In this document: one piece after another, positions 12,201 through 62,993 of the stretch
How positions within the stretch are numbered: the stretch's first letter is position 1
How the letters are laid out: every line of letters begins with the position of its first letter
DNA from: Chrysomallon squamiferum
Lineage: Eukaryota > Animalia > Mollusca
Direction: 5' to 3'
Length of the DNA: 64,000 nucleotides
Assembly (NCBI GenBank): GCA_012295275.1
Contig: CM022665.1
Span: forward strand, 22,692,001-22,756,000
Translations under genes and position numbers: made by a program
The notes under the pieces: model-generated
What the model was told of the DNA's origin: nothing
What the model saw: only the letters and a program-made list of their open reading frames with translations
Database searches by the model: none

Positions 12201-13326
12201 TTAAGATATTTATTTTATCAATGCTATAGTTCAGTTTAATAATATAGTTAATTATAGTCAAGAAATCTGTAAGATAATTAATAATAGTTTAATATTACAA
12301 AATATACTTTAAAATGCTCATTGCAAGTGCTTGGGTGAATAGACTGATAGTTGATTGGTATTTTTAATGTCTATTTAGGCTTTATTAAAAATACAAGGGG
12401 GCGGGGTTGAAAAAATGTATACTAATTCATATTTAAAGCATTAAGTCCTTGATCTTGAAGTGCATAATTTAATTCACTCAGTGCATATTCTTACCACTTC
12501 TATAGGTCTCTGAAATATTAGTTATTACCAAAGTTGAATTTTTTTCATGAACAACACAGATTAATTCTTTAATTTATAATGTTTTTAACCACACTTTTAA
12601 CAACTATTAATGTCACTTTGCTGATTCTTCTTTACTAAGAATGAATCCAAAGCAAATTTTAATAAGATAATCATAACCAGAATTAGGAGAATAACTTGAA
12701 TAATATAACAGGAATGCTAAAAAAAAAGACTGAAGATTAATAAAAACTACTAATTTCATTTTGCTGCTGATCAGTTCATTCTTCTAATGAATTTCAAAAC
12801 AAAATTTAGTAATATAAATATAAATTAAAAAATAATGATCAGTATCGTAAGAACAGTATATAATATACAAAAGAAAAACAAGAACATCAATTTGCCTGCA
12901 GTGGGCTTAACTTTTCAGTGTATCTACTACATTTTTGTAAAAAGAGAAAATAGACTTACATCCAGATGATCAAGCTTGGTTCCAATGCTGTCCTTAGAGC
13001 CACGATCATCCTCTGCTTCCTGCAGCTTACGTTTCATTTCCACTAGCCAGTCTCCAAACTGTGACTTCTTCTGTTTGTATGATGCATGATTTTTGTATGA
13101 TGCTTCTAGACTACTGACTAGGTCCTAAAAATGAATTTAAGAAGATTAATAACAATGTGATGATGAAAACAACAACAACAGTCTGAAGACATAAATTGTT
13201 AATATGTATTTCTGTTAACTTTAATGTAATACTGCATTAGTACATCATTATAAAAATAATAATATTTATAGGGTTTTTTCTAAAGTATTTTCAGTTCTTA
13301 TCAACAATTTTTATTTATTATTAAAG

Positions 13327-13358
<32 letters not shown>

Positions 13359-13886
13359 CTTTTTTTTACAGTGATGTGTTTACCATGAAGATAAACTTAA
13401 AATAATGAAAATAATTTCAATTGTTAACATATCATGATTTTTTATTTATTTAGAAAAGAAAGGAAAATTAGAGGGTTACTTTTGATAGAGCAATGACTGC
13501 TTGATAGCGTGTTGTTATCTGTGTTATGGAATGTGAGATTCTTGCATCAGCATTTGTCTCAAGAAGAGCATGTCCCTTTTCACTGACAATGTCTAATGAT
13601 GACTGGTGTGCCAATATGTCATCCAGATGTCGCTGGACATGAAAAAATAAAATATATAAATGAAAAAATCAAAATAACAATAATAAAAACAATAATGAAA
13701 AATTTATAATTTGAAGGAAAGAAACCTAAACACACATCCAAAAATCAGTTAAACCTTTAAAACATAACCATGTAGTTATTACTTTTTAAACTGAGCTGAA
13801 TATAACTTCATAAATTGTGCTAAGAAATAATGTGATAATTATCTGTTCATAATAATACTTCACATAATCATCTTTATTATTATTAT

Positions 13887-13918
<32 letters not shown>

Positions 13919-16900
13919 ATAATTTAAATAAACAAACCATAAAGAAATACTCTACTGAAGATTAAAATTGTAACAATGACATAAATGCTTGTATGTTTAG
14001 TGTCAAAATATTACTAATTCATACTTGGTACTGTTCCCACTGGTACTTTTTCTCTTCCACTGTGGCTTTCTGATCAGAGTCTGATCTCATGAGATTTTCA
14101 GTGTCTTTGAGCCACTGGTTAAAGTTATGGAAGCTTTCTTCAAATTCTTCCCACTTAGACAGACAGATTTCCAGGTCTGATTGAGCCTGTACCAGCTGTC
14201 CTCGGAACTCGTCAAAATCTTTATGCATTGTCTGAAGTTCATGACGAATCTTTGTCTGTCCCTTAGGGGAAGTGCTTGGTAAAGTAGCTTCTCCTGACTT
14301 TGTTGCTAGAGAAAGTCTCTGAGTTCCTTCAGTCAAATTTTGAATCAGTGCCTAAAATGAAAGTTCAATTATCATTATCATAATATTATAAAATTCTATT
14401 AAATATAATATTTTTTTTATTATTTTTTTATTTATTTATAGTATCAAAAAGAAAATATAAAAGCAAATATACTAATAATGGAACATAATATAAATTACAA
14501 AATGTTAAAACTTTGTTCTAAAATTTCTGCAACATTTTAGCATATTTAAGTCTATTTATGTGCTGAATGTAATCTATGAAAAATGATTTATTCAAGTAAC
14601 AATGACTTAAATACACTTAAAGTTTCTTTTTAAAAATAATACTATAATTATACCATGAAACAGCATGATAAAAAAGCAACTTTTACTTTACTTTATAAAA
14701 AGAAAACAATATAGTATCAAATGAACTGCTTCAAAACAAATATACAAATCATCTCTAAATAGCTTTAAGATTAAAAAGCATTTTTTAAAAAATCACTGAA
14801 CATCAGAGACAGGAAGAGCATCCTTTGAGTCAACAGAGACTATCAGTTTGACCAACATAACATTATTTCTAACAATTTTCTCTGACACACTGCAAACCAA
14901 GTAACAACCTCTAACCACAAAGTCAAACTGTGACATAACATTAAACAATTATAGCTGGTCTTTTGACTATCTCTCAGCAAATGCACTGAAGTGAACTGAT
15001 GTTGATAAATAAATAAAAAAATAATGATCTGGAATAACAATAATCCTAATCTCAGACTACTTAGCACATTGTATAACAACTGGGCAGGTAAAGGGGAGAA
15101 GTCCACATATATACTGCAGACTATATTAATGTAAATATTTAAGAATGTGAGTATTTTTGTGAAAGAAATGAAGGTATTTAGTTAATTTGACTTAATTTAC
15201 ATTTTAATTTTGAAAGTCTTTTTTCCTGTCAATTAATATATTATAAAATTTAAAGCCTTTCCTTGAATGTTGTTTTATTTTAAAAATGAACTAAAATATA
15301 CATCTGAAGATACGAAGTATAAAATAATCAAAAGTGCAACAGTATGTATGAACCTTTCATCATGTTTTCTTTCATTTTGTTTCTATGAAAATATTAAGAA
15401 TTTCTTATCAACTTATTTTTTTTTTTTAATTGACTGTCATCTATATTATGGTCTACCTCTTGATGTAGTAAAATAAGATACAGAACTAAACAGTAACCAT
15501 CCAAACAAATATATGGATAAAAAATCACATGACTACAGATTTAGAATTATCAACAGTTCACAGGATTAAAGCACTGATAATCAGGTAGTTCTGGTCTTGG
15601 ATTACAGTGTTATGTAACCTTTGAAGTAGACTTCATTGTGATTTTTATTGGTGGAACACCCAAATATACAAAAAAAAAAATAATAATAATAATAATAAAA
15701 TAAAATAATCAAATGTAAATAAATAAATTAGACTTATAAAAGACTAAAGATATAACACCCTCTCCAAAAGTAAAAATTAGTTATTTTCAATTAATACTTT
15801 TCAATTAAATTACAAGCCATTATAGAATTGAATTGATTTTATTAATCTAAATGAAACTAAAATATAGAAATACATAAATAAATGGAATTCAAACTGTTTA
15901 AACAAACTTTTTTAACTGCAATAAAATAAAATGAAATAAAATATTTTACCTGCACTCTCTCGATTTTGCTCTCAATGGCAGATTTTTCACCATATGTGTC
16001 GGAGCAGGTTGCTAATTTTTCAATGGCTGTACGTAACCAAGTAATGAACTGATTACAGTTGTCCAGGAAATCTTGATGGTTAGCAACATACTGTTCATTC
16101 TTGGCAAGAAGTTCCTAACAGAAAGAAAAATAATGTCAAATAAAAAAAAAAAAATCAATACAAATTAATAACTGAATTTAACAAAAAAAAAAAAAAAAAA
16201 AAAATTAATTAACTAGTAAAATATGAAAATAAATAAATAAACAAATACCTGCTACATACTATCACAAAAAGATTACTTGACAAATATGTATTTATTATTA
16301 TAAGAATGAAGGTTTCTAAGATTAATATTAAAAGTTTCTATTAATTTTGTTTTTTCACAAAAGTGTAAATTCACAACGTAGAAATGATAATAAACTACAT
16401 ATGTACTTTAGCTTGTTCTTTGAGTGTGTGGTATCTTGCAGCTATCTGTGATGTGTCAGTGGTGGTGTGACTTGCTGGACTTTTCTCTGCAAGCTGGTGA
16501 GCTTTTTCTGTCATAGACTCAACCATCTGCTCATAGGAGACAATGTCCTGGTACAAAACCTGCAAAATAAATAAATAAATAAAATTAATAATGATTACAA
16601 CATCAGTTAAAACAGTAAAGCCTATATCTGTTATTAAACCTGCTAATAGATCATTCCTACGAAAAGTTAAAAATTGGATAATGAAACTAGAAAATTCACA
16701 TACTAGGGTTTTTCATTCTGGATAAATAATGCAAAATTTGGGTTAGTTTTAAATAATATACTAGTAGATGCTAAGTACTTCAAAAACAAACAACTAAAAA
16801 TAATATTTTAAAAACAGAATATATTAAAACTAAAAAAAAATTATAAACCTTAATTCTCTGCAGTTCTCCTTTTTTCTCACTGATATCTGCTTTGGGAGAT

Positions 16901-17892
16901 GTTTCCTTCAGTTTCTTCTCCATTTCTTTCAGCCATTTTTGAACATTGGAGTGGCTGTCACTGAATTCAGTCCATTGTAAAAGACAAGATTCCAGCAGAA
17001 CCTTGGTGTCTGTCACCTCTGAAATGAGCTCATCCCAGTCATTTTGTAACTGTTGTAGTTCCTCACGAATCATCTCACGACCAGTTACTGAGGAATTGGT
17101 CATTGTCTTCTCACCCCAAGTATTAGCAGTGTGGATCAGAACCTGACCCTCTTCTTTCATAACATTGAATTCCTATTTACAATATAATAATGAAGTTTTG
17201 AAAATAAGTGAGACAATTATTTCAAAGACTAACTTATAATAATATTCATAATTCTTTCTTCTTTTTTTATATGATTAAGTAATAGCATTATTAATCATGA
17301 ATAAATATAAATGCTTTTTCATTCTTCTAAATCAAATCTTGTGAAACATTTTTAGAATATAATGTCAACATAATATTACATTAAATATGGCTTAAAATGT
17401 TGTAATAGTTTGACAATTATTCATGCATGTCAGAAAATTAAATTTATATATATATATAAAGTTTCTTTATTCTTGAAATGTAAAGGGTAACATTATTCAA
17501 GAAAATGGGAATTTAGTTAAATTTTATCCACTTAATTATAAAACAATAAATAAATAAAATCTGGTAATTAAGGTGCATTAAAGACTAATTTTCTGTGGTA
17601 ATTAAAGTGGTTTTACCTGTAACTTTTCAAGCTGTGTCTGTATGGTGTAACGGTCACCTGATGTGTCAGTACAGACAGACAGCTTGTCACGAGTGGCCTG
17701 AAGCCAGGATACTGCATCATTGTACACCTCACTGTACTGCTGATGATCCTGGCAGTGCTGTTCATAACGCTTCATCAAATCCTAAATAACATAAACTCAT
17801 AGGTAAGTAAAAAATAAAAAAATAAAAATTAAATAATAATAAAAAACAAACCAAAAAATAATACTTAAAGAAATTAAAAAAAGAAACTAAAA

Positions 17893-17923
<31 letters not shown>

Positions 17924-20900
17924 GTAAAAAGGTTTTATTAATTTTAAATACCAATCCAAATACAAATTAAAATATAATAAATTTATTGATATTACTCATA
18001 ATTTAAATTAAACTATATTAATATTATTAAACAACTTAAAAAAAAAAAAAAAATGCTTCTTTTATTTATTTATCTTCTGAAAACCAATTAGAAACTGACC
18101 TTGGATAAGGTAATCAGTGTGGTGTATCGAGAGCCCATCTGTGTGAGCTGGGTAGACACTCGGCTGTCTTTAGATGACTGCATTAATATTTGTGCCTGTT
18201 CAGCCAAATTGTCAAATGCTGTCTGCTGGGCTATTATTTCTTCATGTACACTCTGAAATGAATTTTTTAAACATTAATGTAAATAAATTAAACAAGAAAG
18301 ATGTAAAGGCATTATATAATTATGAAACGCTTACAGTTGCAAATAATCTGTTATATAAGCTTGTACAAATATAATTATTATGCTTTATTTTCTAATGTTT
18401 TTTCAAAAACACAAATAAAAAAAAATGGTACAGAATTTAATTTCAATAAAACACTCTTGTTTATTTATTAATACCTTTTGTTTCTCTAGTTGAACTGTCT
18501 TGTCTTCTAGAGTTGACTTTAGTTCAGAATCTGCTTTCATGTTGGCTTCCATGTCTTTTATCCAGTGACTTAGTTCCTCATAGTACACTTCATATCTCTG
18601 CCATTGCTCATGCAATTTTTCTACACATAATTAAATACAATTTTCATCAGTTCACTGTAATTTTTTAAAAGTTAAAAATTAATGTATATACAATTTAGTA
18701 AAATGTTGTGGTCTATTTAATGCTATATATTTTATTTTCAACTCCTATGAAATTTAGTATTAATGAAAAGTATAAATTAAATGTAAGAAACAGGTGTTGT
18801 TCAATACATCTGTGATATTTAAAAGTAGAAAATTTATAAAAAAATTAAAAAAGGTTTATTATACACAAACTTATTTCAAACTTATTTGGGGAAAAAAGGT
18901 GCTTAAAATAGTAACTACAATATCCAGCAACTTACCTAGTGTTCTGATCAAGTCAGAAAGGTTTGCTTCAAACCCAACAAAGTCATTTTCTAGCATGATA
19001 AGTTCCTCTTTTATCAGTTCTTGACCATGACTTGATGTCTGTGGAAGAATGCTCTGTCCTTTACTTTTAGCTGTTTCCATTTTCTGTCTGCCTGTGTCCA
19101 CAGTGTTAACAATTTCCTGAAAATTAAAAAATAACAATTTAAAAAATTCCAATTACATTAATATTATATGTTCTATAATAAGTATCAAATATGTTTTTTA
19201 AAAAATGGCTGGGATATTTATATTTTCAATATTAATTATAACAAATGAACTTCCTATATTAATTATCTCACCTGTACTTTGTTCTGCAGAGCCTCAATGG
19301 CATGTCTGTCGCCACGGATATCACTGCACAGACTGAGTCTGTTGACAGCAGCTGTCAGCCAGTCTGTCATGTCCACATAACTGTCACGATACAGCTGATG
19401 ACTTCTTAGATTTGTGTCACATCTTTGAAGCAAATCCTGTGATAGTAAACAATGTAAATAAATAGAAAAAAATTACAGATGATGAATTAAATAAATTTGT
19501 AGCTGAAAAATAAATGATAAAACTGAAGGTAAACAGAAAATCAGTTGGAAAAAATTAAATGATTCTTTCATCTTTTTGTTTCATTTAAAAAAAGGCCTTT
19601 TAGTTATAATTATTATTTTAAATAATGTCAATAAATTAAAAAAACAATGATAGCATGTAAAACTTAATTTATTGAGAAAAAAAAAAAAGAATTGAGATAA
19701 TTTATTTTAAAAATTGAAACACAATGAAATAATGAAATTTTCAAGACAAAGATCTTTACTTTTGTTTTAGTTCCAAGCTTGTCAAATCTTGATACAATTT
19801 CTTTAATCTGGTTGCTTAAACTCATGTCCTTGCTGGTTTGTCTCAATTTCTCAGCCTTGTCATTCATACTGTCTATTGTACTCTGCTGAGAATTGATGTT
19901 TAACTGCAGTACCTGTTTAAAAACATTTACCATTAATATAATAGAACCTATTTTTGTTAAATGAGAATGAAATCAGCACTTAAAACCAATGAATTGAATT
20001 AATATTTGTTTAAGGACACATACAGATATTAACATTTATAGATGTAATATTATCCATTTGAAAATAATGAAATCTGCTGCTTTTCTGTGAGATTATAATC
20101 ATTTAAGGGTGTGTGAGTTAACAAGTTACGTATATTAAACTGTCAGTTGGGTTCAAAGCATCTTCATATTTCATGTAATACCATAATAAACTGTTGTCAT
20201 GTATATGTTGTGGTTCTCACATGTACTTGATAATTTGTTAATTGTCTCATGTTTAGTAAATTTGTATTTAATGTTTCCTGTTCTCTGTCATTTTTGGATC
20301 AAAAATTGATCTTATGACCCATTATACCTTAGGTTATACTGTAACCACTGAGCTATAGATTCTTTATGGTCTTTTCATAGAAGTTAACCTAATACCATGA
20401 CATTTACCTTGATCCTATCAAGCTGTAGTTTCTTTTCTTGCAATGTATTCTGTAACTGGGATTCAGTTTCTATTTGTGTCTCAAGATCTTGCAGCCAGCA
20501 CTGTAGCTGCTGTACACTGTCATCATACACAGTCCACTGTGCTAGACATCCGTCCAGCTTCATCTTCACCTCATTCAAGTCTCCAGACAGACTGTCATAC
20601 TCTTGTTGTAGTGCCTGCATCTCACGACGCATGTTGTCACGTCCACTGACTGATGTATTGGGTAGAACAACCTGCAGGTTGTCCAGAGCTATCTGTAACA
20701 TGTGTAAACCTTCTTCCTTCTCAGACATCAGTTCCTGAAGAGAATAGATCAAATGAATGAAACGATATTACCAATTTCAGAATTATTATTTTTAGATCAT
20801 TGTCATTTGTGATTATTTGAGATGTTCACAAATTTCAGAAATCCAGTAACAATATAAGTTTATTATAGTTGTTTAAATTTATATACCCTTCTAGCATTTG

Positions 20901-23900
20901 GTTCAGCCTCTGAATATTGTTATTCATACATATCTTTATTATTTCACTTAAGCCCTCCCCTCAACAACAACAACCACACATAAAACCTTAATGTCCAAAA
21001 ATGCACCAATCTGTATTAATCTATAGAATATTTAATGATTTTTAATTAATTTTTTAAGATAATCTTTCACTGAATATTAATTTTCTGAAATCAGGTAAAC
21101 TACTATTTATTATCAGTTACAATGTAACACTTTTTCATCATCAAAGTACCTGTACTCTCTGAAGTCTTCCCTGTATCACATTCTTGTCTCCACTGACATC
21201 CATTATTCCAGACACCTTCTCCTTCATGTCTCCCAGCCAAGACTTGCACTGATCAAATGATGTTATGTATGCTTCATGATCAAGTACATACTGTTCCCAG
21301 CGTCGACACAGTTCCTGAAATATTATTCCAGCAACTATTTAAAATATCTGTACTTAAAGTAACAAAAAAACAGCATTTTTTCCATATAACCTAAACAGAG
21401 ATGTCAAAAGGATAGTATTTTTTCCACATAAACTGACAGACATATGAAAAGAAGAGCATCTTTTCCATCAAAATCAATAAATATGAAAAGAATACATACA
21501 AATAATTTTTGTAAATAAATATTTTAGTGAGTAACTGAAATTTGAGCTAATTTTATACATATATTTTTTAATAATAATTTCTGCAGCAATTAAAAATGTC
21601 TGAAAAGATAAATTAAGTAAATGTTACCTTGATGTTAACATTGATCATTTGGTATTTGGTTGAGAGCTGAGAAACTTGACTGACAACTCGCGTGTCTGTG
21701 CTTAGCTGCACCAAGTCTTGAGCTGCATCACTCAGTGAGTCTAGATCACCTTGGTGACTACTGATATCTTTGTGGAGAGCCTGAAATAATATATGATTTT
21801 ATAATATTAAACAGAGTGTGAAAAATAAAATAAAAAATAGATTTAAAACAAAAATAATATAAAAAATAAAAATAAAATATTAAAAAATAAGAAAAAATCT
21901 GCTTTCAAATAGTTATTATTTAAAATTTAAGATTTAAGCAATTAATTTGTTAAACCTATTACTTGTTGTTTAGTGCAGTCACCTGTTATGAACAGTATTT
22001 TTCAAATGGAAACAAAAATAAGCATTGCAATTAGGTTTTGACAAAATATTTTCATGTCTTCTGAATAATATAAATAATAACTAATTAGTAAATAAATAAA
22101 TAAACAAACAAACAAACAAACAAACAAACAAACAAACAAACAAACAAACAAACAAACAAACACAGATATGAATAAATAAATAAAAATAAACAAATATATA
22201 TGAACCTTCAGTCTCTCCAGTTGTTGTTGTTTCTCTTGTAAGGTAGATTTCAAGTCTGTGTTGCGGATTTTGTTTTCCGATTCTTTCAGCCAGTCTGCAC
22301 ACTTTTCTTGCCATGTTTCAAATTGTTTCCACTGAACCATACAGCTCTCCAAGTCACTCTTTGTCTGTGTAGTAATAAATAAAACATTTAGTAAATAATT
22401 CAGTCTGTAATCAGAATTAATTATGAAAATTAATACATCAGTTTTAATGTTTATAATAATTAAATAGAAAAGCAGAAAGAATTTAATTAAAAAATAATCT
22501 ACTATGATTAATTAATGTGTAGAATGTCTAAGAATATTAAATGCAGTACATAAACACATAATATATATGTACATATCTAATGTAAAAATTAAAAAGAAAA
22601 AATTTCGAATTATATTATATTGTATTGGTGAATAAATTTTTTCACACAAATCTATACCATCAGTTTTAATTAATATATTAGAGGAGTTTATAAAAGAAGA
22701 ACATTTTTTATCTGAAACCAAAATGTAAAAATAATAATTATAAAAATTTTAACTTTTTTAGAATTAAAAAAGCTTTTAATTTAATAAAGCCATTACAAGT
22801 ATCTCTCTAACTCATCTTTTTGGACACTTATTTACCTTGGCCAGTGCTGTAATGAATGCCTCCCAATCAGCCTGCAAGGCCTCTGTTTCACGAATTATCA
22901 CTTCTTTACCTTGTGGTGCAGTGTATGGCAATACTTTCTCAGCCAGTGCAACAACATTCTTAACTTTAGGCTCTCCTTCCATCCTTGTAGCAAGTATGTC
23001 CTAAATGAATAAAAATAACATGTATAAAATAAATTGGAATTCACACCATTTTTTAAAAGTTTGTATATAAAATGTAAAATAAATAAAAAATTGTTTTCAT
23101 ATTTACAAAACATTTTATCTATAATAAAATTTATAATTCAGATTCTACACCATCCAGATAAATATTTATTATTATAGCATTCCAAACTGCAAGAGAGAGG
23201 CCAGCCAACACCTTTCAACAAAGCTTGTGAAGGGAACATGACATAACATTATTTGACAGCTAAGAAAAGCATTATTAGAATTTCCTTGATCATAGTTATC
23301 ACATAATAGGAAATGAGAAGGTAAATGAAAAGCTAGTCCTTACCTCACCGCATTATAAGCAATTACATCAACAAGGTGTTAAGATGTATGTTAATAATAT
23401 AATAATGTTCGTTTTAACAATAAGGATATAATCCAGTTTATCATAGCATTTGCTTCAGTACTTTTTTATAATATGATTCAAGGAAGATTTGTGTCTGCAA
23501 CCTTAACAATAAAATACACACACACAAAAAAATGAAATAATAATAAAACAACAAATAATAATAATATAATAAAATGAAATAAAATAAAATAAAATAAATA
23601 AATAAAAACCAAACAACAATATACATTTTATTTGAAAAGAAATACATAGATTAAAGGTATATAAATATAATTAAATCAATAAAAAAATTAAAAATTTAGT
23701 GTACCAAATCCCTGACAAATATATTTTATTATTTGTGAGCAATATATACTACAGTTTTAACTACACTTAAAACTGTTTTTATCCACAAATAAATATAAAA
23801 ATTAATTGTCTTAAATTAGACTGATTTCATCATAATAAATCCCTACTTAAAATACCAGATTTCTTAAAACTGTCAGCAAAATTCTTTTATCAAATCATAT

Positions 23901-26900
23901 TCTAATTACATTTTAAATTTATCAAACTAATTCTGCAGATGGATATCTACAAATATTTAATTTCTATATTCTGTAAAACATTATTGACTTTGTTTAATTT
24001 AACTAAAGTTGTAATTCAAAGACATTATGTTCAATATTATTTAAACTGAAACCCCATTTTCATCAAACAAAATATTAAGTTTAATCTAACACAGACCATC
24101 ACCACTTTGCTAACTACATAAATATCATTAGCATTGTTTTTCCTCCTTTTCTTTTTCTCAATTATTTGTTTTAAGGATAAATTTATAGAAAAAATTAAAT
24201 CCACATAAATCAAAATACCAATACAGCTTCATAATACAGATGAAAAATTTAATTATAATTTTTAAATATTTAAATCCAGTCGTTAGTATTTAAAGCAAAA
24301 TCAATATTTTTAATTACTTTGTAAAATAAATGAAAATAAATGAAAAAGTAATAGTAATTTAAATTTTAATTAAATTATTCCAAAACATTCATATTTTACA
24401 CAAATTAGCCAATTAATGCCATGCGGAACACACATAGTAGGCTATAGCCAAACATAAAAAGTAAAGCATGCATATCTGCATTCTACTATGTCTTGAAAAC
24501 ATAGTTTGTTTTATGCAGATTAAAAAAAAAAAGTGCAATTTTGCTAAAAATGTCTGATAAAAATATAGAAATGAGCTATGTCAAAAAGGAATAACTATTT
24601 TTTTTTTTTTAAATAAATAAATAAACAACTTTTATTATTTAAATATAAAATATTTATAGAAAGAAACTAAATGTAAATCTGGTTTAAGCATTTGCGTTGC
24701 TTTTTAACTATTGTTACTCAAAAAAAAAAAAAAAAAAATCAATGTCTGTAAACAAAGAAATTCTTTATATGTATATTCAGATTTCCAAAAATGTTAGTTA
24801 ACTGAAGCAAAAATCTAAAAAACTGTAATAATATAAAAAGAACAGAATAAAGAAAAAACATACCTTTTAAAATGTTAATTGTTTAACTGGATGGATAATT
24901 TTTATGACATTCCTTCAAGGTTTAAATATTAGTCTGATGCTGCATTTTTTATATTATTTTACATTTTTGATGAAATATTAAAACAGAAATAAATTTCTGT
25001 ATATTTAAACATTTAGGTATTATAATACTTAAAACTGGATAATAATTATATGTATATTAATAATAAGAGATAATATCAGCAACAAAATGTTTACATGGTG
25101 CAAGACAATGGCAGATAAAAACAATGTTGATCAAGTAACTAAGGCTAATCAATTCAGTAGATACATTTTTTTATAACATTTTTTATTTTGCTAGCTGCTG
25201 CAAATTTTACTGGACTGAAATGATTCAATCTATACCAACCTACATGATTAATACAGACTTGGAATATGTTACACTGTATTTAGCATACATATCATCATTT
25301 TATTATATAAATATATATATATATATATATATAATTATCAATGTCAGAACCTTAGTTATTATAGTTAGATATGTTTTGTTATTAACAAATTTAAAATTTC
25401 TAGTTTAAAAAATAATGGTATCTGTAATTCTCACACACACACTTTTTTTTTCTTCTGGCATTCATATTTTTGCAAAAATATTTTACATTTCTTTAATTAA
25501 CTGCATACAAAAAGAGTTGGTTAACCATGAAGGAATGTATTCTATCAAAAATTCTAAAACTGGCAATTGCCAAACAAGAGACAAGCAAATTAAAAGACAA
25601 TTACAACAAACATTTAGCACTTACACAACGACGCTGTTCAGAAGAACAAAAATATTTATTACTAAAAGATCTAATTAACAGAACAGAAGAATGAAGGAGA
25701 GTAAGTTCATAGTTTACTTTAAGATCTACAAACATTTTATACTTTTATAAAGAATTCTCTATAATTTTACAATAACCAAAATTCCAAATATAGTTGAGAT
25801 GTAGCTAAATATTAAATACAGTATTTAAATATGACATCAACTGAAAATAACTATTTTAAAATTAAAACCAGTAACTAAATCATTAGTTGCAACTATCTAA
25901 AATAACATGCAATATCATGTCAAGACAGGAATTGCAATATTTGGTTTGATCAGCATTAATATTACATTTCAGTGCATAATTTTAAATATGAAATATCTCA
26001 TTATAATCTTTACATGATTGCTTTAAAAAAGAAAAGAAAAGAAAAACATTATCCAAAACATTATTAAATATAATTGCACTGAAAAAAGAAAAATACTTAA
26101 GTAATAAACTTGCTTTACCCTTAGCTTAAAATAAGAATATTTAAAAATATTACCAGTTCAGTCTAAAAAAAATTCAGACAGTGGAAATTTATATATATAA
26201 TTCCCAAATGGAAGAAAAAAAAAAAAAAAAAAAAACCCACACAAATCAGCCATTTGATTTTTTAGAATAAAATAGACTAAGTATTATCTATAGCTAATTC
26301 TGACATGTAAGTAACTCACACAAACATTAAATACTTCAACTAAATATAATTATTTTCCTGATATAGGGTATTTTCTCAAATATATATACAGATATATGCA
26401 TTCATGTATACACTTGTTTCAATTATGAGTGGTAACAATAATTTTTGTTTAAATTACCTGTATTTTGTCCAGTCTACTCTGAATTGCATGCCTATCACCT
26501 GACACATCAGAACAGACAGAAAGTTTCTCTCGTATGCTGTTCAGCCATTCTACACAGGCATTATAAGCATCGTTGTACTGCTGGTGGTCTGCGACAAACA
26601 CTTCGTACTGTTGTACACGGTCCTACAACAGTCAAGGAACTAAGTTATTTAGATATTATTTAAAGTGTCTACAAATCAGTCTGTAGAAATCATTAATAAA
26701 TCAGTATATGTATACCTTATCTATATTTGTATTATCTTGTTTAAAAATGTCTATAAGAATATATTATTTGCTTTTATTAGTTTTAATCTAATTTATTTAT
26801 AAACTGATATATTTATAAAAATATTTATCTCCGTTTTTTTTCTAATTCATTTATAAAAGAGTATCTAGAAACATTATTTCTGTTCAGTCTAATTCATTTA

Positions 26901-38462: not shown

Positions 38463-38501
<39 letters not shown>

Positions 38502-44500: not shown

Positions 44501-47500
44501 GTTTTACCTTAGCAGCCTTGAATCTTTCCACAAGATCCTCATCATTACCAGAAAGATCATCACATTTAGCAAGCAGTTCCTTGATGTGATTCATCCAGTC
44601 AGATTCCTCAGAGATAGATGTCTGCAGATCCTGCTGTTCATTAGAGAATGTTGTCATTACAGTGTCCAGTTCATTGGCTAATGCAGATGCTTTGTCAAAT
44701 TCTTCCTGTAACCTCTTTTGTGTTTTCAGCAAATCAGGCATCACCTGTCCACTGTTCATTTCCTGCAAGTCCTTTACTTTCTGGTTCACTTCCTTAAGGA
44801 CTTCAGCAAAATATGGTGCTTCTTCCTGTTATTGGGGGTAAAAAAGAAAAATATACATGGTAAAGAGAGACTTTGAAACATTATAAATATTTACTAATAA
44901 ATATTTTTTAAAGATACCACAAGACCTTGATGACATTAAGATAAAAAGGTAGATCAACTTTTAAAACATCTACTTACAAAATATTATTAGAAAAAAATAA
45001 ATAAAATTAATCATTTATATCAAATATGATAATAATAACTAATAATTAATGAAGAAAAATACACAAATTAAATCAGTGACATGGTGCCAGTATCTAATAT
45101 AAAAATTTAAAAATAAGGTTCTGAAATAAAGACTGTTAACAAAACAATATTTTAGAATGAAACAGATATTTACTTCATTTAAAATTTTCAAGTGAACAAA
45201 ATATCCTCACCTTAAATTTGATAAGTCTGGCCTCTACACTGACAGCATCATTGAAATTAGTTAAACTGTCATCAAGCTTGGACACCATGTTGTTTAGCCA
45301 AGATGCAACTTCTTCTGTTCCAGATTGCACCTGATCCCAACAAACAAGTTGGGCTTCCATATTTTCTTTATGCTCATCAATTGTCTGAAATGTACAATAA
45401 TTAAAACAAATTTAAAACAAATCAGTAAATCCCTCCATATTTTTAGTTTTAAAATATTTTCCTCAACTAGTCTTTTTATTATTTAAATTAAAATAAGGAT
45501 CTGTTTCATCTTGTTTTGAGTATTTTAAAAAATAAAATTGAAATAAAATTCTTAATAAAATATCAAAAAGTTACTGTTAGATTAAAATATCTACAATTAA
45601 AATATTTAAAATTGTATTTTTGATGTCTAATGTTATTTTGCAGTCACACTGTTTCATTCCTCAGACAAACAAGTCATTTAATTATTTTGCTTCTGTCATG
45701 GCCAAATTAAAAAGAAAGTGATAATATTTTTCAGATTATTATAAATTTTAGAATTTTAGCAAAATCTATTTAATTTAACACAACTTCACTGCACTTACGG
45801 AATTAGTCTTTTCCCATTTTAAGTTTATGTCATCCAAGTCATTTTCAAGATTCTCTATCTGGAAGTTGGGAACCTTTTTAAGTTCATTTATGAGCTGCAT
45901 TCCTTTGTTGTTCATGTGATCAAGTTGTGTTTGGTTGGCATGAAGCTCAAATTCTGCATTCTTTAAAAAATTAAAATATAACATGAAATAAACAAATTAG
46001 GGATGATAAAAGTATTAAAATCCAAATTGTTGTTTTATTTTTATTTTTTAAAACAAATCTGTAATTGTAGTGGTTTAACTACTCTTTGAATTTAAAAAAA
46101 ACAATGACTATTTACTTCATTTTTATTTAGTGAAAATCCTTATTTTTTCTTGCTTCTTAAACTTATGGAGAAAAAAAAAGTATTTAAAAGATTTTGCAGT
46201 TCTTTATTTTTTCAAGGATTTCAGGAGGTGGAAAAAGGAAGGATTAATTCATTATATAATAATTGTAGATAACAAGACCTGGTCACTCTTTGCAGTGATA
46301 CACATTGACTATTCATCAGCCCATTATTGATTTAAACCATGATAAAGTATCAATTTCAACAGTAAGAAAAAAGAATAAGATAAAATAAGTTAACAAAAAT
46401 AAAAATGTCTTACTTTATGTTGATCCAAGCTCTTCTTAAGAGATTTCTGATCAGTGAATGCAATGTCTTGATTAACTAATGGCTCAACATCAGCTAAGAC
46501 ATGAGACACACCTTGTTTGGAATCATTGTATTGCTGCCACAAGTTGGCCACACTGCTGTAGCACTGATGTTTTTCACCCAGCAATGCTTGAACACTTTCC
46601 CAGGCTTTGTTGACATCACTCAGTTGAGCCTGGATTGCTTGTGCTTTTGATGGGTCATTCTGCATTATCTGACGTCCCAACTCACGAAGTTGCTCATATT
46701 CAGGGTTATAAGTAGACATATCAGCTTGAATATCCTAGTGATACAGTAATAGAAATCAAAAAAAAAATAATATGAATAAATAAATAAATAAAATAAAAAT
46801 AAAAAAGGGAAATCAATTCAAAAGTATGTTAGTCAACAAAATATATTTATATTGTAAAACAGTGACTGTTCTCTTAATTCAGTACTTCAAAGACAGCTTT
46901 TCTTTAAAAAAAAAAAAAAAAAAAAAAAAGAATTGCTATATATAATTCCAATATTTCTCACTAATTGCACCTTTAAAAGCTAAACATAATAAGTCTGCAA
47001 ATCCAAATCTAAAGTAAATCATAACGATAAAATTTGATAGACTGCCTTGAAATACTGAATTAGTGTATTTTTAACAAGAGGGGAAAAGCCACAAATATCC
47101 ATTCACAAAAACAGATGTATGTTTGTACAAAATGCAAATACCAAAACAAGCTTTCATGCTACTCTTTTCACCATCATGCTCTAAAGATTTGAGAGAGAAA
47201 ACATTATGTGACATTTAACATTGTTTATCTATGTCCTAATGTTACCTCAAGTTCTCCAATAAGTTCTTTTAGTCCTTGTTCACTGGAAACTCCTACTGCA
47301 GAAGCAGCAATCTTGGCCTCCACTTCTTTGAGTTTATCAACTAGAGTTTTCTTTCTGTCTGAAAAGTCATCATTCATCTGAGCCAGTTCTTCGAGATGGT
47401 GTTCTTTCTGTTCGGCATTCTGAGACACTGTGTCACATAAATTTTCTATGCTCTGAAGTTCTGTGTTAAAATGCAGGGTTCTTTGAGTGGCTCTATCTTT

Positions 47501-50500
47501 AATGACCATCTGAGATGCTCCCATCAATTCATCTAGCAAATCTGCATTTTTGTTCCAGCCTTTCATGCTATTTCTCAAGTCTTCAATCTCTTGTTTTATC
47601 TTAGCTACTTCCTCTTCTTTCAGATCAGGATTCTGAAGCTTTGCCTGCAAATTCTTTAATCTAGTCTGTGCATCTTTGTGCTGCTCATGATATTTTGACC
47701 AGTGTTCACACAGGTTCTCACGATTTTGAACCAGATCTTCTAATCTAGTATAGCCCTCCATGACCTTGTCAAAACGATCACCTAATATGGCAGCTTCTTC
47801 TTCTGTACAATTCTGCATCATTTCTTTGAATTCCTGCTGCAGTGCTTGAAACATTGGGTCCTGTTGATTGGCCTCAGCTTTCATTGCCTAAAAGCATGCA
47901 ATTTACTAAAACATTCATCCCAGAATTAAACATGCACCAAAATAATACCAGCAGCCAGAATTATAAGCTTTTGCATAGCCCACAAATTGAACATGCAGCA
48001 ATATTCACAATTATACTAGGTATCTAAATGGAGTGATTTGTAATACTGATGGAGATTATTATGACAAAATATTTCAAAGTTTATAACCATCAGTTTAATA
48101 ATACATTTGTTTTTTTATTTAATGCAGCTAAGGTTCAAATTTTTTTTTTTTTTTTTTTTTAGTGATTCATTACTTTGGATTGTTTATATATGAGGTAATA
48201 TATAAGAACTAAAAAGTGGAATAAATACAGTATTAAAACAATGTTAACCAATTTTATATATCTGTATCTGAACCTGTAAGGCAGATAAAAAAAAGTTTAA
48301 GTGAAAGCCATTTTAGGTTTTTAACCACAAATCACTTCATAAATTTATACCACATTCCATCATACAAAATGTGTTTAAAGTGAAACAGGAATAAATCTAA
48401 TTAATAACCAACATGCAGCATAAAAAGCATGGATGTTGTAAACACCAAAAGTGTATTGATAGGGTAAGTAAAATGAAATGTATACAGTAGTAGAAGTAAT
48501 TATGAAAAAATTATAACTAAAATTAAGACTTAAAAAAATTCACAAAAAAACAAAGACTAAAGCATCAATGAAATGAACATTAATTTAATATTAAATTCAG
48601 TATAAATATCGTACATTTACATTAAATATTACAATAAAAGTAACAATTCAGAGTTCCGAAAATATGAAGCAAAATATTAAAGAATAGAAACATTATTTTT
48701 TCACAACTTTCTAAGTATTTTTATGATTTCTTTCAATTTTCATTTTATTTGTTTATTTATCAAATGATATGTTCTTTTTGCATGTACAAATCATACCTTT
48801 AGTTTTGCAAGGACCTCAGCTACTTCATCTGAATAAATTTCACTGCCTGTGTCTAATTTCCTCTGAGACTTTTTAAGCCATTTCTCAAAGTCTTGTAATC
48901 GTGAATAGAAATCTTTTCTATGTTGAACTGCCTGAGCCAGTACTTTCTGTTTCTCCTGCACACCAGCATTGACTCTGGCCCACATATCTTTAATTCTCTC
49001 TTGTTTGGCCTTCAGATCTTTCAGTCCATCAGGGCTGGTGTAAGGCTGCACCTGTTCAAATTGTCGTTGTACAGCATTTACTTGTGGCTGGTAAGTTCTA
49101 ACTTCTTCTTGCAAAGCCTGGTAAAGAAACAGATATTCTGGTTTAACAAAGGAAACAAAAACATTTTAAGTTTTAAAAAAGGTCTCTTTAAAGATTAAAT
49201 AAAATATCTAATTTTGTCAATTAAAATTATTATTGTTGCTGAATTCATTTTTTTTATTTTATTCATGCCCAACAAATACTTGTTCATTACCTCATGTCAA
49301 AATGAGTTAACTATTTCTGTTCAAAGTATGATATTCATTTCAGTTAAATGAGAGTCTTTATCAGCTATATAGCATCCAGTTAAATTTACTTATGCAGTTT
49401 TGTTAGTTTCATATACTTTGGCAAGAGCAAGTTCATGTTCCAGAACTTGAACATCTGTTGAACTGGTGTTTGGTTCTTGTTCTAATCTGTTCAGCAGCTT
49501 CTCAAGAGCTTCTGTCAGGTTAGCTTGTTCTTCATCATACACAACCCAGGCACCATGCATTTTATCAACCCGATGTGAACGTTCCTCCGAAGCATTCAGA
49601 ATGTTTCCCCACCTATGCTGGATTGATTCAAGTTCTTGTGGCATGTTGGGCAATTCCATTAGATAGCCAGCTTCAGTACTCATCTTGTCAAATATAGGCA
49701 AGTTTTCTTCTGCCTCTTGAAGAAATGTCTGCCACAAAAAAACAAAAGAAAATACACCTTATAAAACATATATGGTTTCACCTATACAACATCAAATGTC
49801 AGGATATTTTTTCAGTACCTTCAGGGAGATCTTGTAATACTGTTTTTGCTACAAATCTTTTACCAAATAGAAAATAATTTACACAAATAAATTATCTAAA
49901 TATCTTACCTGATGAACATCATACAAGTCTTTGGCTTCTTCCAAAGAAGAGCATTTTGGAAGTTCTGTTGCACAGTATTTCTCAGCCTTTACTATCCATG
50001 GCATCAGCTGTTCTTGCAGACTCTGGTATCGCTGCCAGTGAGCGACATTACCTGAAAGTGCAGTACTTTGATCCTTAGCACGAGCACACAAACTTTCCCA
50101 TTGTCGTCGAATACTTGTCAGTTTAGATTTAAGTGCAGCAGTTTCACGTGAACGGAAGTTCTGAGACAACCCTCGTGCATCCTTTTCCAGATTTTCCAGA
50201 GTGATATGATTTTCATAGACTTCAGAACAGATAGTCTGAAAAAATAGTAATAATAATAATAAAACTACTAGATCTAAAAATAAAAATATTTATGCATAAA
50301 CAAAACTAAAAATAATTAATAGAAAATTTAAAAAAAAACATATTACAGTTAATAAAACAATATCTTTTCTTAATATTGGTCAGATAATCATTTAAAATAT
50401 ATATTAAAAAAATGTTTTTCTAAAAATACCAAAAAAACAACAACAAAACAATAAAAGACTAACCAATTTATTGATTTCATATCACCATAAGATCAAAGAA

Positions 50501-53500
50501 AATTTTCAACATCCTTACCTCAGCCTTGCTTAGCTGCACTTCTGGTAGATCTTTTTTCTCCTCATAAACTTGATTGAGGTTTGATTCCTTTTGATTCAGC
50601 CAGTCACAGAAATTATTCAACCTCTTGTAGTAGTCTGACCATTTAGCTATTGTTGCCTCCAAATCTGCAAGTTTAGCATTCAACCGAACAGAGACATTTT
50701 GCAGTCGCTTGTCAATATCAGATACTTCACCTTTCAATGGGCCTTGCCTTTCGCGACTAGCACTTTCTGCTAAAACTGCATTCAGTTTCTGCACCTCAGA
50801 CAACTTGCCTTTCAGTTTGTTTAAAGTGTTGTGTAACTCCTGCAAATAAATATCACATATTTACTGACAAATGCCTGAGAAGGGCTTATGTTTAAATAAG
50901 AGTGAACCTACTATTTATATTTCAATAACATTTTTAGATATTATTTTGCAAGACTTTTCAATATATACATATATAATGCATTCCAAATAATAATTCAAAT
51001 TAATTTTGAGTAAAATGGAACATGATTAAAAAGCAAATTCACCGGAATAACTACTATAATTAATAAACTTTATTATCCTCCAGTCAATATGAATAACAGT
51101 TCTAAGGACATTAAATATATATGAATATATTTCAGTTAATTTAATATAAAATATAAAAAATTATTTTAAATGATATTTATTAGTGGCAGAAACCTTTTTT
51201 GCTTCTAACTCTTTCTTTGCTGAGTCTTGTCCATGTGTGGCAGGTGGTTTTTCTAATTCAGTCTCAGCTTTCTTCAGATATTGCACCAAGTGTTTCTTCT
51301 CCCCTTCATACTGTTCCCAGTTATGAAGAGTCTCCTATCAAAATTAATATTTATATTGATAAATAAATTTATTCTATTTTTTATTCCTGTATCAGGAAAA
51401 TTAACCATGTAAAATTAACCATGTACCAGCTTCTCCATTTCCACTTTTTAATTCAATATTTTATTAATTTTTTATTACATTCAAAAAAACACAAAAAACA
51501 ATGAATTTCAAAGTAAACAGTGTTTTTAACAGATAAAAAACCTTAATTAAATGAAATTAGTACAAAAAATAAAATAAGTAAATAAATAAATATTCAAGAA
51601 GCTTTTTAAAAAAATACAAATTCAAATCTTCAGTTATTTCAATTTTAATGTTTGAGAAAATCTGGCTGTTTTCTTTTTTTTTTTTTTTTTTTCAGTTTAA
51701 CATCTGAATTACCTGATCTCATTTACTGAAGCTTAAATATCATACCTTAAGTTTTGCATGTTTGGATCTTGCTAATTCATTTGTATCCTTCCACTTTCTG
51801 CTAAGATCATCAACAGATCTGCCAATAAAAGATGGTGCATCTTTTTCTTTTTGTAGTCGTTTTCCTGCCTCTATGTCAGCTTGAATACTGGCTGCTTCTG
51901 ACTCCAGCTTCATCATAATTGACTAAGAAAAACAAAAAGCAAAGCAGGGTTAGGAGTATGGAAATGTTGCCAAACTTCAAAACATGTTAGAACACTTGAC
52001 ACAATCATATCTAAGCATTTTAATAAATATCAATAGCATTCATTTTTTATTATCTAAATATACATCCTTAAATCTTTTTCATTAACTGTTTTTTATGTGG
52101 TTTTATATTATAGTGAAGGGACTATACTGTGACACAATACCTGTTAAAAATAATTTATTCATTGATATCCTTATTCTGACCTATTTGAAATGAAATAATA
52201 CAGATAGAAGGTAACAGTTACATTGTAATTTTTTTTTTTTTTAATTTGCTCTTTACTTACTGCACTCTATATACTATTTAATTATGGCTTTTATAAAACT
52301 AGTAATTTTAATAACCATATATTGTAAATCTACAAACAGTAAATAAAATGTACATGATTTATCATGTTGATTTAAGATCTGTGATGGATGCAGTACAACA
52401 TGTAGCTGGTTAGTAAACAAATTCCACTGTTATGGAGCAACAACAAAAACTAATGTGCTTAAATCAACCATGTCAGTATCAAAGATATAATCAATAAACA
52501 ATATTTAATATCAATATGTGCAAACAAATAGTTATAATTTAGGGTAATTATAAAATTTTATTTTAGATTATGGTAATAACTTTAAAAAAAGAGATGTTAG
52601 TTTAAAATCATCTTCTAAAAATTTTCTTTTTATTATTTAAGTTTATTTTGGTTTCATTATTTCATTTATGTATGATGGATTATTCTTTTGAAGAAAATGT
52701 TTTATTTATTTATTTTATTTTATTTTTATTTTTTTTGTTTCTTTTATTCTTTGAAAAGTTATATAAATATTTTAAATTTATTAAATGGATATACTATAAA
52801 TTGTGAAAGCATGCAAGTGAGATTCCATGCTTATGTTTATTTAATTAAAATGTATGTATTTTGTTACAACTAAAACACAAATAATTTATCACTGCCTTCC
52901 AAATATCTTCCTTCTTTATTAAAAATAACTTTCAAGTTTTAATAAATGTAACCATCTTTTAACCCTACATTCATTAACTGAAATACTGTTGTGTTAATTA
53001 GTTTAATATCTTAACACAACAAATTCCTGTTTTTCAATAATGTGCCAAACATAATATATATCTGTCTCCCATGACATTTTTTTCAAACGTCTGGTGGCAA
53101 AAAGCAGGTTAATAACAAACCAGGAAATACCTCATCCACAAACTTGCAACAGGGTTTGATTTTCAACTTACCATTATTCCATGAGGTGACTGATATTATA
53201 AAAAAAACAAAAAGGGTCATGCTCTTAAACTAATCTGTTTATTGAAGTTTGGCATTCCAATTTTATGTCACAAAAACAAGATTTAAAAAAATAACAGTTA
53301 AAAAAAAGAAGAAAGAGAATAGCAGGCTGAATAAACTTTAATTAGTTAAATAATTTTAGCAGTTGTGGTTGAGCATTTCAATTTATATATAGCATATTCA
53401 TATTTTACAAAATAAAGAAATTTTAATTGCTCATTTTCCATATTTATCCTATTCTTTGTTCTGCTTTTCTAAAGGACATGAATACAACATTTAAATAAAC

Positions 53501-54169
53501 AGTTTTGTTTTCTAAACAAAATTCACAAAAACAACTTTATATAAAAATATTAACTCACTATATTATCAAGAAAAATATGTTCTAAAATGAAGAACTATAT
53601 GATGACTATATTAAACATTGTGGTCTTCTGTGATTTTAATGTTATATAATGTGGTCAAACACAAACACTGTCATGTGAGTGCATGCATAAACCAAAGATT
53701 ACAGTTTATGAACATCAAAACAGAAGGAAAAAAGGTCCCAAATATCTCACCTCATGTTCTTGTAAGTATGCTCTGGCATCATCCAAACTGTCAATAGCTG
53801 GATGTTCCATCACCAGTCTCTGTGTTTCCTCCAGCCAGTTGGATCGACGTTCCAAACCATCTCGGTACTCAAAGCTCTTGGAAATAACGGATGATTTGTC
53901 TGATGTGTCCTTCATTGTCACGTCCAGGTTTTTGAAACGAGACAACATGGCAGCCAGGCGTTCTCGCTCTTTTCTTGAGTCAGAATTTGGAGTATCACTC
54001 AAAAGTTCATTCAAATTTTCGGAAAGCCATTTGGCATCTTCAGCATATTTGCTTTTGTTCCGCATGGCTTTCTGCAAATTATAGAAAAGAATTTAGTAGA
54101 TGTCGCTTTAGAGTAACAACATATAAATTTTATTTGTTTTTTCACTTATAAAGATATTAAGATCTGCAC

Positions 54170-54200
<31 letters not shown>

Positions 54201-57200
54201 TTTATCATTTTCTTTTTTAGAAACATACAATTATTAATTAAAATATTTAAATATTTATGTGCACAATCACCTATAAATATTTATCTTCTTTCAATTAATA
54301 CTACAATCTATCTTAGACATGTAAAAAGCAATAAGCACTACTTTATTTATAATGCTATGCACATGTAATTTTTTTTTTTTTTTTTTAAAAGAACATTGAA
54401 GAATAGACTACTGGAAAAGACATAATGACTGACAACGATTTGAAAAAGCAAACAAAACTGAAATAAAACAGCAGTGGAATGTCATGATTGTAAGCCAAGA
54501 TAATTATTTAGACATGTATAAAAACAAATGTATAAATGGCACCTTCTATTTTGATATACAGAAATGATTGTTCTAGTTGTGTTGAATATTTTTAATTTTG
54601 TACCCCATGTATATCTGTTGAAACGTTTCTTGTTTTGTAAATGATCATTTAAAAATATTAAATTTTGATATTTGTTTTCTTAAGTCATTTATTTATTTAT
54701 TATTATTATTATTTTTTTTTTTTATAAATATGTATTGATCTTTTTTTCTTTTTTTTTTTTTTTTTTCATTAACTGATTTATATTTTTGTAAACATAAATT
54801 ATATTTTATTCTTAATATTTGTTTCATGTGAACAAAAAGCACAGACTTCCACACAAATTTAAAAAATAAATGTAAGCTACAGAATTAAAAAAAAATAATA
54901 AACTCAAAATATAAATATTTTCTTAGCAGTAAGAAGAGCAATAAAAAGAAAAGCCATTATCTACAAAAATAAAAAATAAAAATAATAGAAGAAAACATAA
55001 TCCAAGCCAAATGCTATATATTAAAAACTAAAGTACATGTTTTCCAAAAAATGTATTAACTGTTTATTTTTTACATTGTTTTTACCTTATACTGTTTCCA
55101 CAAGAGCAGGCAGTAATTAAAACTGATAGTTTTAGCATTTGTGTCTAAATGACAATTATTCACAATGCACAATAAATATAACAGGAAATATATCAAGTAA
55201 ATACTACAGAATATTAAAAGACTTATTTCTGTTATATATTTGAAATATCGTCCTATGTTAATAACAGTGTAACTTGGTGCCTAAAAGGTTTACTGTATAA
55301 AATTATTTCTTTATACTATTGATTTTAAGATGATTCCAAGCAAGAATAATATCTAAAAATTAAGTGTAATGTCCATTAAAAACAAATGAAAAAACAAAGT
55401 CATAAATTATTAAATAAACAGTTAGCTGCAAAAATGAATATTCTTTTTATACATGATCACTTTCTGTTTAATGGAATTACCTGGAATTTGGCTAGCATGT
55501 CTTTGTATTCATCACTGGTTAGATCCTCTTGCTGCATAGCCTGAACAAGACCTTCTACTTCCATCACCCATTTGTTAAAGTCTGATAATCTGTTTTTGTA
55601 TATAAACATATATATCAGTTATTGGACATTCTAAATGTACTATCTTCTATATACTTCATCAGTGATTTTATTATAACATAAATATTAAAGAAAACCCACC
55701 ACATAAATAATTAGTCATTACCATCAGCTTATACTTTCCTCTATATTATAGTGTTTTAATATATGTTTTAACTAATTAAGAAAATATTGGTAAAACTGAA
55801 TCAAATATCTGTTTTATAGATTGTTCTGTTCCATGAGAAATGATTAAAAAACAACAAAGTGAGGCAGTCTACCTTGTGTTATATTCTTTCCATCTCTCAG
55901 GTAGTTGTTTCAGCTGCTCGTGTGTGCTATCGGCCACTGATTTCAGCCTCTGCCATCTCTCACTGTGTTCTTCATATCGTCGCAACAGTGACTTGTCTTC
56001 TGCATTGTGATTTAACAGCTTTCTGGCAATGCCATCCATTGAGCCAAGGCACTTTTCGCAAGTTTGAACGATTTGGCCATCTTGAAATAGTTGCTGCATC
56101 ATTGAAAAAAACAAACAAAAAAAGTTTCAATTCGTAACTCAAGAGAATAGAAACAATAAAAAAAAATAATGATTGTTAAATTAAATGGACGAAAGTAATG
56201 ATATAACAAAATAGATACCAAACTAATATTTTCTATTAATTTAGAAAATTATGAATTCAGTGATTAAGGAAATTTAAGTTTCTGAATTTATATCTAAATA
56301 AATGACTAAAGAAATAATGTATTAACTTTACATAATAGTTGTGATGAAGGGTAAGCAAAACATGTAAAAATTAATCTGCAAAAGTAATTAAAAATCTTCT
56401 TCTGTTTAAAAAAAATCAAATTGAATTATTAAAATTTAACATTAGATGACAATAATACTTTTAAAGATATTTAAAATATTATAACAACACAAATTTCTGA
56501 GTAAAACATAGAACTCCTATAGTGCATTATTTTTCTGACAACATACTCTGTGTTTCATCAGAGCTTCTTTGACATTTTCTCTGCGATTAAGTTTCTCTTG
56601 GTGTTCTCTAATGATTTTCTCAGCATTCATCACAGTGGCCAGAAATTTGTCTTCAGGGAGTGCAAATTCTAATTTCATCTGCTTAATTGGTGCATTGTAC
56701 AGTATATTCTGAAAAATGTTCAAAATATGAAATAAATTTTGAAAAAGAGAACATATATAAAATTTTCATTAAACAAAGATTATTTGCAAAACATTTAATT
56801 ATATTAAACAATCCTTAGAAACATTTGTTAAACGATGTTTAAAAAAGAATAGTAGACATTTGTATATTTTATTATTTATACACTGAAGAATGGGATAAAA
56901 CACAAATACAGAGAATGTGTGTAAACCTTCAGCACATTATAAACAAAATTATTACAAAGAAAAACGTACCTTCCATCTGGCTTCAAGATTAGCCATGTTT
57001 CTCTGCAAGCCAGCTCTGCTTGATTCAGGTAATTGCTGGAGAATGTCTTTTCCTACTGTTAGATAGTCCTGCAGGATTCGACCTTCAAAACGGTCAAAAA
57101 ACATCTGAAAATGAAAAAATCAGAAGACAGTATTAAATATGTAATATTTTTATTATACAGATACACTTTAAACCAAAATCCTAATTGTTTATAACTTTAA

Positions 57201-62956: not shown

Positions 62957-62993
<37 letters not shown>

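Follow-up and report, generated by a model that had tools for sequence, protein, structure and literature searches.

Do long introns, in a gene whose introns are nearly all short, mark exons that a gene model has passed over? The question is raised by the nesprin-1/MSP-300 gene in a stretch of 64,000 nucleotides (nt) from Chrysomallon squamiferum (GenBank assembly GCA_012295275.1, contig CM022665.1, positions 22,692,001 to 22,756,000 of the forward strand; hereafter the window), for which a preliminary description had proposed a hidden programme of microexons directed at one helix-B position of the nesprin rod. It appears highly probable that the long introns carry small in-frame optional exons, one of which, of 51 nt, would be ancient and, according to structure prediction, pushes a short helix out sideways from one spectrin repeat. 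These are several exons of different ages, independently regulated, and not one programme acting at one position.

The gene model, on the minus strand, joins 79 exons into 5784 amino acids (aa) without a stop.

6087..63271, minus strand: nesprin-1/MSP-300 gene, 79 modelled exons, holding the end of CH2 and about 50 spectrin repeats and extending past both ends of the window

Exon 2 matches the CH profile PF00307 (E 4e-14), as expected of nesprin-1/MSP-300, and the rod, which matches the profile Spectrin_SYNE1, is collinear with named nesprin-1/MSP-300 orthologues across the whole model; by these signs the gene is the nesprin-1/MSP-300 of the mollusc. The closest named protein is the nesprin-1-like protein of Gigantopelta aegis (88.6% identity over the part covered by the Gigantopelta model); identity is 59–64% to other molluscs, 39–40% to nemerteans and 25–30% to arthropods. 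A structure model of an orthologue matches spectrin repeat structures, and no solved structure was found for this rod region. The KASH domain would fall outside the window; the Gigantopelta orthologue carries one. Exons and introns are numbered as in the preliminary description, and J47 denotes the junction of exons 47 and 48, with other junctions named likewise.

Seven introns are long; the remaining 71 measure 155–648 nt.

54072..55480, minus strand: intron 16, 1409 nt (gene model)
51923..53750, minus strand: intron 17, 1828 nt (gene model)
47888..48796, minus strand: intron 23, 909 nt, without an in-frame cassette and with four TGCATG (gene model, motif scan)
29053..31823, minus strand: intron 47, 2771 nt, with RNA contigs over part of it from retention or read-through (gene model, RNA)
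23001..26457, minus strand: intron 52, 3457 nt (gene model)
14352..15949, minus strand: intron 66, 1598 nt, no cassette detected here or in orthologues (gene model)
11570..12959, minus strand: intron 69, 1390 nt (gene model)

All seven are in phase 0 and lie 28–30 residues past the tryptophan of helix A. The lengths, phase and shared position given earlier were exact, but an intron after exon 79, which exceeds 6 kb, leaves the window and does not lie at helix B, had been overlooked. The earlier caveat that helix B is the commonest intron position was justified, as 41 of the 75 rod introns lie there by a strict rule and 50 when 9 are added by eye. Given this base rate, the probability that seven of seven long introns fall at the helix-B position is 0.011–0.05, and the position that they share exceeds the base rate weakly.

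Five exons bounded by CAG and GTAA, of 6, 18, 51, 9 and 15 nt, were located where they had been described.

55086..55091, minus strand: 6-nt candidate microexon (YK) in intron 16, probable (UGC at -21 and -17, orthologue inserts)
53172..53189, minus strand: 18-nt candidate microexon (SPHGIM) in intron 17, unproven (good splice scores, 6.7/7.2)
31253..31303, minus strand: 51-nt cassette exon (17 aa) in intron 47, real and alternatively spliced (RNA joints, orthologous inserts)
25625..25633, minus strand: 9-nt microexon (RRC) in intron 52, judged real from its conservation (identical optional RRC in gastropods)
12495..12509, minus strand: 15-nt candidate microexon (RPIEV) in intron 69, unproven (top candidate within intron 69)

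RNA was examined as contigs from four runs of one study over the region 28850–32250, that is, for intron 47 only; contig gaps within this intron were given no evidential weight. A joint of exon 47 to exon 48, skipping the 51-nt exon, was found in all four runs (depth 190, 34, 69 and 112). One run shows exon 47 spliced to the 51-nt exon at its acceptor (22.7 versus 190 for the skip), and another shows the donor of this exon spliced to exon 48 (6.0 versus 34). The ends defined by RNA coincide with those predicted. The 51-nt exon is thus real and alternatively spliced, with skipping outweighing inclusion in the four runs.

Inserts at J47 were counted in 48 spiralian proteins, in 11 mollusc proteins that span the junction, in 42 proteins of an arthropod-dominated set and in 12 isoform sets. 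They were present in 20 of the spiralian proteins (17–24 aa) and 3 of the 11 molluscs, and 8 of the 12 isoform sets held pairs with and without the insert. Gigantopelta (six of seven isoforms, close to the window peptide) and Biomphalaria carry 17 aa; the insert measures 21 aa in Pomacea (6/7), 24 in Nucella, 24 in Tubulanus (7/9) and 25 in Babylonia (2/3). In the arthropod-dominated set it is exactly 25 aa in 25 of the 42 proteins (insects, crabs, a scorpion, a horseshoe crab). It also occurs in a centipede and a second horseshoe crab, and the sequence of the 25-aa form is conserved over insects, crustaceans, chelicerates and a myriapod. The rows of Tachypleus, Cylas and Dendroctonus were aligned to another repeat in the junction test, and their inserts were taken from other alignments. 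A 63-nt candidate occurs in the orthologue of intron 47 at two metagenome loci, 417–508 nt from the donor (520 here); at locus L002 this intron measures 1479 nt and is flanked by introns of 159 and 150 nt. Locus L003 was set aside as a different part of the rod. Since the 51-nt exon has a counterpart at J47 in nemerteans and arthropods, it likely dates from the common ancestor of these groups and molluscs.

Drosophila has lost this exon: a 4421-aa open reading frame that clusters with Drosophila proteins runs through J47 and J52 uninterrupted, and the inserts were not present in five dipteran models. Among 115 distant long open reading frames, 11 have their end at J47 and 37 begin immediately past J16 (a query-biased sample of relatives that are not independent), which suggests that insect giant exons often retain precisely these introns.

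The 9-nt exon of intron 52 is real, judged by its conservation. Its peptide RRC is letter-identical and optional in three gastropod genera, namely in Gigantopelta (6/7 isoforms), in Pomacea (1/7) and in both Babylonia genes, and there are only five possible 9-nt exons in intron 52, RRC among them. It has the features of a conserved microexon, being 3–27 nt long, in frame and matched by an orthologous optional peptide. At the same junction Tubulanus carries RMP (7/9) and Biomphalaria KHF, the caenogastropods Babylonia, Nucella and Pomacea have further exons of 11 and 5 aa, and in/out pairs were found in 5 of the 12 isoform sets. As separate observations, Babylonia areolata possesses two nesprin-1 genes (the P0227 and P0359 groups), with RRC in both and the J47 exon in one isoform set only; the orthologue models of Bulinus, Elysia chlorotica, Sinanodonta, Biomphalaria glabrata and one tick start or end at J52, which suggests that many species have a long intron there, or that the gene starts or ends internally at this point; and intron 52 holds one more in-frame candidate with a good acceptor, which equals the 11-aa caenogastropod exon just mentioned in length but does not resemble it in sequence.

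23462..23494, minus strand: 33-nt in-frame candidate in intron 52

For the remaining candidates the record is thinner. At J16, inserts of 2 aa in Aplysia and of 5 aa in Strigamia, Athalia (an in/out pair) and Anoplolepis were seen, and none in 40 spanning proteins of the spiralian set; the YK exon, with a weak acceptor and a strong donor, is probably real. The reality of the 15-nt RPIEV exon is questionable, and that of the 18-nt SPHGIM exon is more doubtful still; both may be chance matches. No insert was found at J17 in 41 and in 12 spanning proteins of two sets, the model of the closest relative being without this region, and length differences of +4 and -3 at J17 in ants were rejected as alignment noise without variation within species. 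In the window, no counterparts were found of the 11-aa and 5-aa J52 peptides, the arthropod 5-aa J16 peptide or the nemertean 7-aa J69 peptide.

Small inserts that vary between orthologue isoforms occur at J16, J47, J52, J69 and J73, all at the helix-B position. Four of these five junctions correspond to long introns here (7 of 75 introns), which has a probability of 1.4e-4, or 9e-4 when two other rod events are added. Together with the RNA joints and the conserved RRC, this bears out the proposal that long introns mark hidden in-frame optional exons. Their combinatorial use, also proposed, is seen as in/out combinations in RefSeq isoform sets.

What does the 51-nt exon encode? Compared with the 17 residues found after helix-B introns of this gene, its peptide is the most similar of 696 intronic peptides and scores like true post-intron helix-B starts; the exon resembles a partial copy of the next stretch of helix B. 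The arthropod form equals the rest of helix B in length, about seven turns, and in 11 of 12 species the insert and the following segment have their hydrophobic faces in the same phase. In an AlphaFold model of a fragment from Babylonia, made with an alignment that was empty over the insert, the insert was looped out as a low-confidence helix (predicted local distance difference test, pLDDT, 55–70). In a model of a sawfly fragment, with 11 insert-bearing orthologues aligned, a single helix ran through the insert (pLDDT 94–97) and the constitutive stretch after it fell below 50, as if the insert occupied the helix-B slot. The long C–A helices and the neighbouring repeats are intact in both models, and lateral extrusion is therefore predicted: inclusion would give a lateral bulge or a helix swap and would not lengthen the rod. 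The kinks suggested earlier did not appear in the models, which show a lateral bulge. The 17-aa insert and those of 2–3 aa would likely break helix B locally.

In the long introns, on the sense strand, TGCATG occurs 13 times versus 4.0 in shuffled sequence and TGTGTG 15 times versus 4.1, values reached in none of 200 shuffles; the short introns show no such enrichment, and the motifs of QKI (ACTAAY) and MBNL (YGCY) are not enriched in the long ones. GCATG lies at +50 and +77 of the 51-nt exon and also downstream of the J47 exon in both metagenome loci. Downstream of an exon GCATG is on the activating side for RBFOX, and RBFOX may regulate the 51-nt exon by this motif pattern.

We propose the following course of events. 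The introns would be long because the exons and their control elements reside inside them. RBFOX-type proteins on the downstream GCATG could favour use of the 51-nt exon in certain tissues (muscle or nerve), and the 6-nt exon would likely be a target of the enhancer-of-microexons (eMIC) factors. Inclusion would place two competing copies of distal helix B in one repeat, one of which would be expelled as a bulge, altering local stability or exposing a binding surface with the length of the rod unchanged. It is conceivable, if rather doubtful, that the helix-B duplicate has been a splice-controlled helix-swap switch since the protostome ancestor, in which the insert takes the slot and expels the constitutive segment, giving tunable slack or a force sensor. 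If so, helix-swap exchange under load would operate in the nucleus–cytoskeleton tether of most invertebrates, and would have been missed since Drosophila lost the exon.

Several results weigh against this account of optional exons in the long introns. The antisense and shuffle null proposed in the preliminary description was run, and the motif criterion failed: in the long introns there were 8 sense matches (in 5 of 7 introns) and 9 antisense (also 5 of 7), while dinucleotide shuffles gave 3.9 ± 2 (P 0.04–0.06 for the count, 0.08–0.09 for five of seven introns, 0.04–0.12 over five measures). The AG..GT motif alone is at chance level. Many antisense matches also score higher at their splice sites than RRC (acceptor 6.9, donor 1.5) or YK (-3.4, 10.7), and the low scores of these two mean that splice-site strength alone cannot rank real exons. 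At J17, J23 and J66 no orthologue has an insert, and at J69 the optional insert of 7 aa, found in Tubulanus only (7 of 47 spanning proteins) and in no mollusc, differs in length and sequence. The two inclusion joints come from different runs, as contigs, with no single read spanning the 51-nt exon, so that neither an inclusion level nor a tissue can be derived for it. The J47 inserts vary from 17 to 25 aa, and the Biomphalaria peptide shows no resemblance to helix-B starts by score, so that the group as a whole is not established as strictly homologous. The two AlphaFold models differ on which segment is extruded, and neither represents the 17-aa form of the window. Lastly, part of the usage of intron 47 may be retention or early termination. 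By the antisense condition set in the preliminary description the proposal would have failed; its two other conditions did not go against it, with RNA joints for the 51-nt exon and conservation for this and the 9-nt exon.

Could the exons be genuine and yet almost neutral, left over from a partial exon duplication long ago and tolerated at a helix-B site that absorbs insertions? The reading through of J47 and J52 in Drosophila and the drift of length from 17 to 25 aa in spiralians would fit this, as would the often mild effect of single microexon deletions in zebrafish, among them a deletion in sptan1 with a mild neural phenotype (accessible text of PMC12626420). The fixed length of 25 aa and the conserved sequence across arthropods, the introns kept by insect giant exons and the motif enrichment speak against it, and we consider such neutrality unlikely.

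The 51-nt exon might instead be mainly the start of an alternative last exon, or part of a detained intron, yielding a truncated KASH-less CH–rod protein or serving output control, with the cassette a minor product. RNA contigs over 31253–31823 continue through the exon donor to about 30800 in three of four runs, and intron 46 is uncovered; reading on past the donor adds a tail of 54 aa, with AATAAA at 31168. The downstream inclusion joint and the preservation of an exact in-frame length across phyla argue otherwise, and the tail carries a 1-nt insertion in two runs, which means that it is not under coding constraint. An alternative last exon as the main product thus seems quite unlikely. Over 30030–31823 much of intron 47 is covered unevenly by contigs, in contrast to intron 46, as would arise from retention, read-through or intronic polyadenylation.

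More improbable, in our judgement, is that one neural eMIC programme of SRRM3/4 includes all five exons together at helix B. It is true that the supported rod inserts all lie at this position, and that the 6-nt exon has a weak acceptor with UGC at -21 and -17, UGC near the acceptor being the eMIC mark in the accessible part of bioRxiv 2021.02.24.432780. In the other four candidates UGC is absent there, however; the AG-free zones of the candidates, 28–57 nt against a constitutive median of 47, are not long. As to length, four candidates are within 27 nt and the 51-nt exon is not. The fly eMIC exons described in that part of the same report have short flanking introns. The differing motifs suggest that the exons are under different regulators, and the isoform sets show them in and out independently. 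The bias of variable inserts towards helix B has a probability of 0.04–0.12, and a likely sixth small exon lies at the linker of helices C and A, in the intron of more than 6 kb after exon 79; targeting of helix B beyond the base rate, as first proposed, is therefore not established.

2549..2578, minus strand: likely sixth small exon, 30 nt (10 aa, ATG start), helix C/A linker (acceptor 11.0, donor 0.3)

In one of 61 proteins that could be aligned, the Biomphalaria pfeifferi model, an insert occupies this junction, and six of the 10 residues are identical to it; the exon would serve either as a cassette or as the start of the coding region in a short isoform without CH domains.

That AT-rich long introns yielded the candidates as mere chance AG..GT matches, and that the orthologue inserts are prediction noise, is hardly credible: the antisense and shuffle controls and inserts that rest on single gene models (Pinctada, Tegillarca, Lottia) could be cited for it, and it is plausible for the 15-nt and 18-nt exons, but for the 51-nt and 9-nt exons it is already refuted, given the RNA joints, an identical RRC among only five possible 9-nt exons and the invariant 25 aa in 25 arthropod proteins.

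Several independently regulated optional exons in a nesprin rod have partial parallels. In the accessible parts of PMC3981789 and PMC3388047, human nesprin-1/2 have cassette exons: DV23, of 69 nt, varies between tissues with high levels in muscle, exon 93 adds 47 aa to a repeat of the rod, and exon 6' adds 7 aa to CH1. These are likewise small in-frame optional exons of the same family, one in a spectrin repeat of the rod and DV23 of similar size; DV23, however, is placed close to the C-terminal end and exon 6' within CH1, and the peptides are not helix-B copies. Chordate SYNE1, at about 22% identity, is too distant for rod positions to be placed as orthologous. Drosophila Msp300 is orthologous, with isoforms that either carry or lack CH or KASH and with few alternative exons (PMC8616381, accessible part), but reads through J47 and J52 in one exon, so that these exons are absent; no rod cassette is described in the accessible parts of PMC8616381 and PMC10317153. 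SPTAN1 (alphaII-spectrin) shares short spliced inserts in a spectrin-repeat rod and is a different gene. The neural eMIC programme (SRRM3/4, Srrm234), as far as the accessible sources describe it, resembles the present case in its frame-preserving exons of 3–27 nt and in the UGC of the 6-nt candidate, and differs from it in that the main exon here is of 51–75 nt, without UGC, with RBFOX-type motifs and long flanking introns.

The exons already stand, unremarked, in automatic isoform annotations. We found no published account of them in a literature in which subscription papers were mostly uncovered and supplements on insect or mollusc splicing may list them. Optional internal exons common to molluscs, nemerteans and arthropods at one junction are, to our knowledge, uncommon. 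The 51-nt exon lies in the force-bearing nesprin rod, copies an element of its own repeat and is missing from the fly model. It offers a testable case of splicing that could tune the mechanics or binding of a spectrin-repeat rod, and it is kept in tractable insects (beetles, ants, a sawfly). The setting in the complex linking nucleoskeleton and cytoskeleton (LINC), assumed earlier, may not apply throughout, as many insert-bearing orthologue isoforms, including those of Babylonia and Tubulanus, end without KASH.

Two further features of the gene were observed. In intron 23 a very strong acceptor (12.5) is followed by nine codons and a stop, with AATAAA 124 nt further on.

48244..48273, minus strand: possible alternative last exon of a short CH–rod isoform, intron 23

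Three TGCATG lie just upstream of exon 24; the idea, taken from this cluster, that the 642-nt exon 24 is skipped was dropped, as 18 of 18 orthologues have no such deletion. At junction 3 (window 61774–62093), nemertean isoforms differ by 27 aa right after the CH domains.

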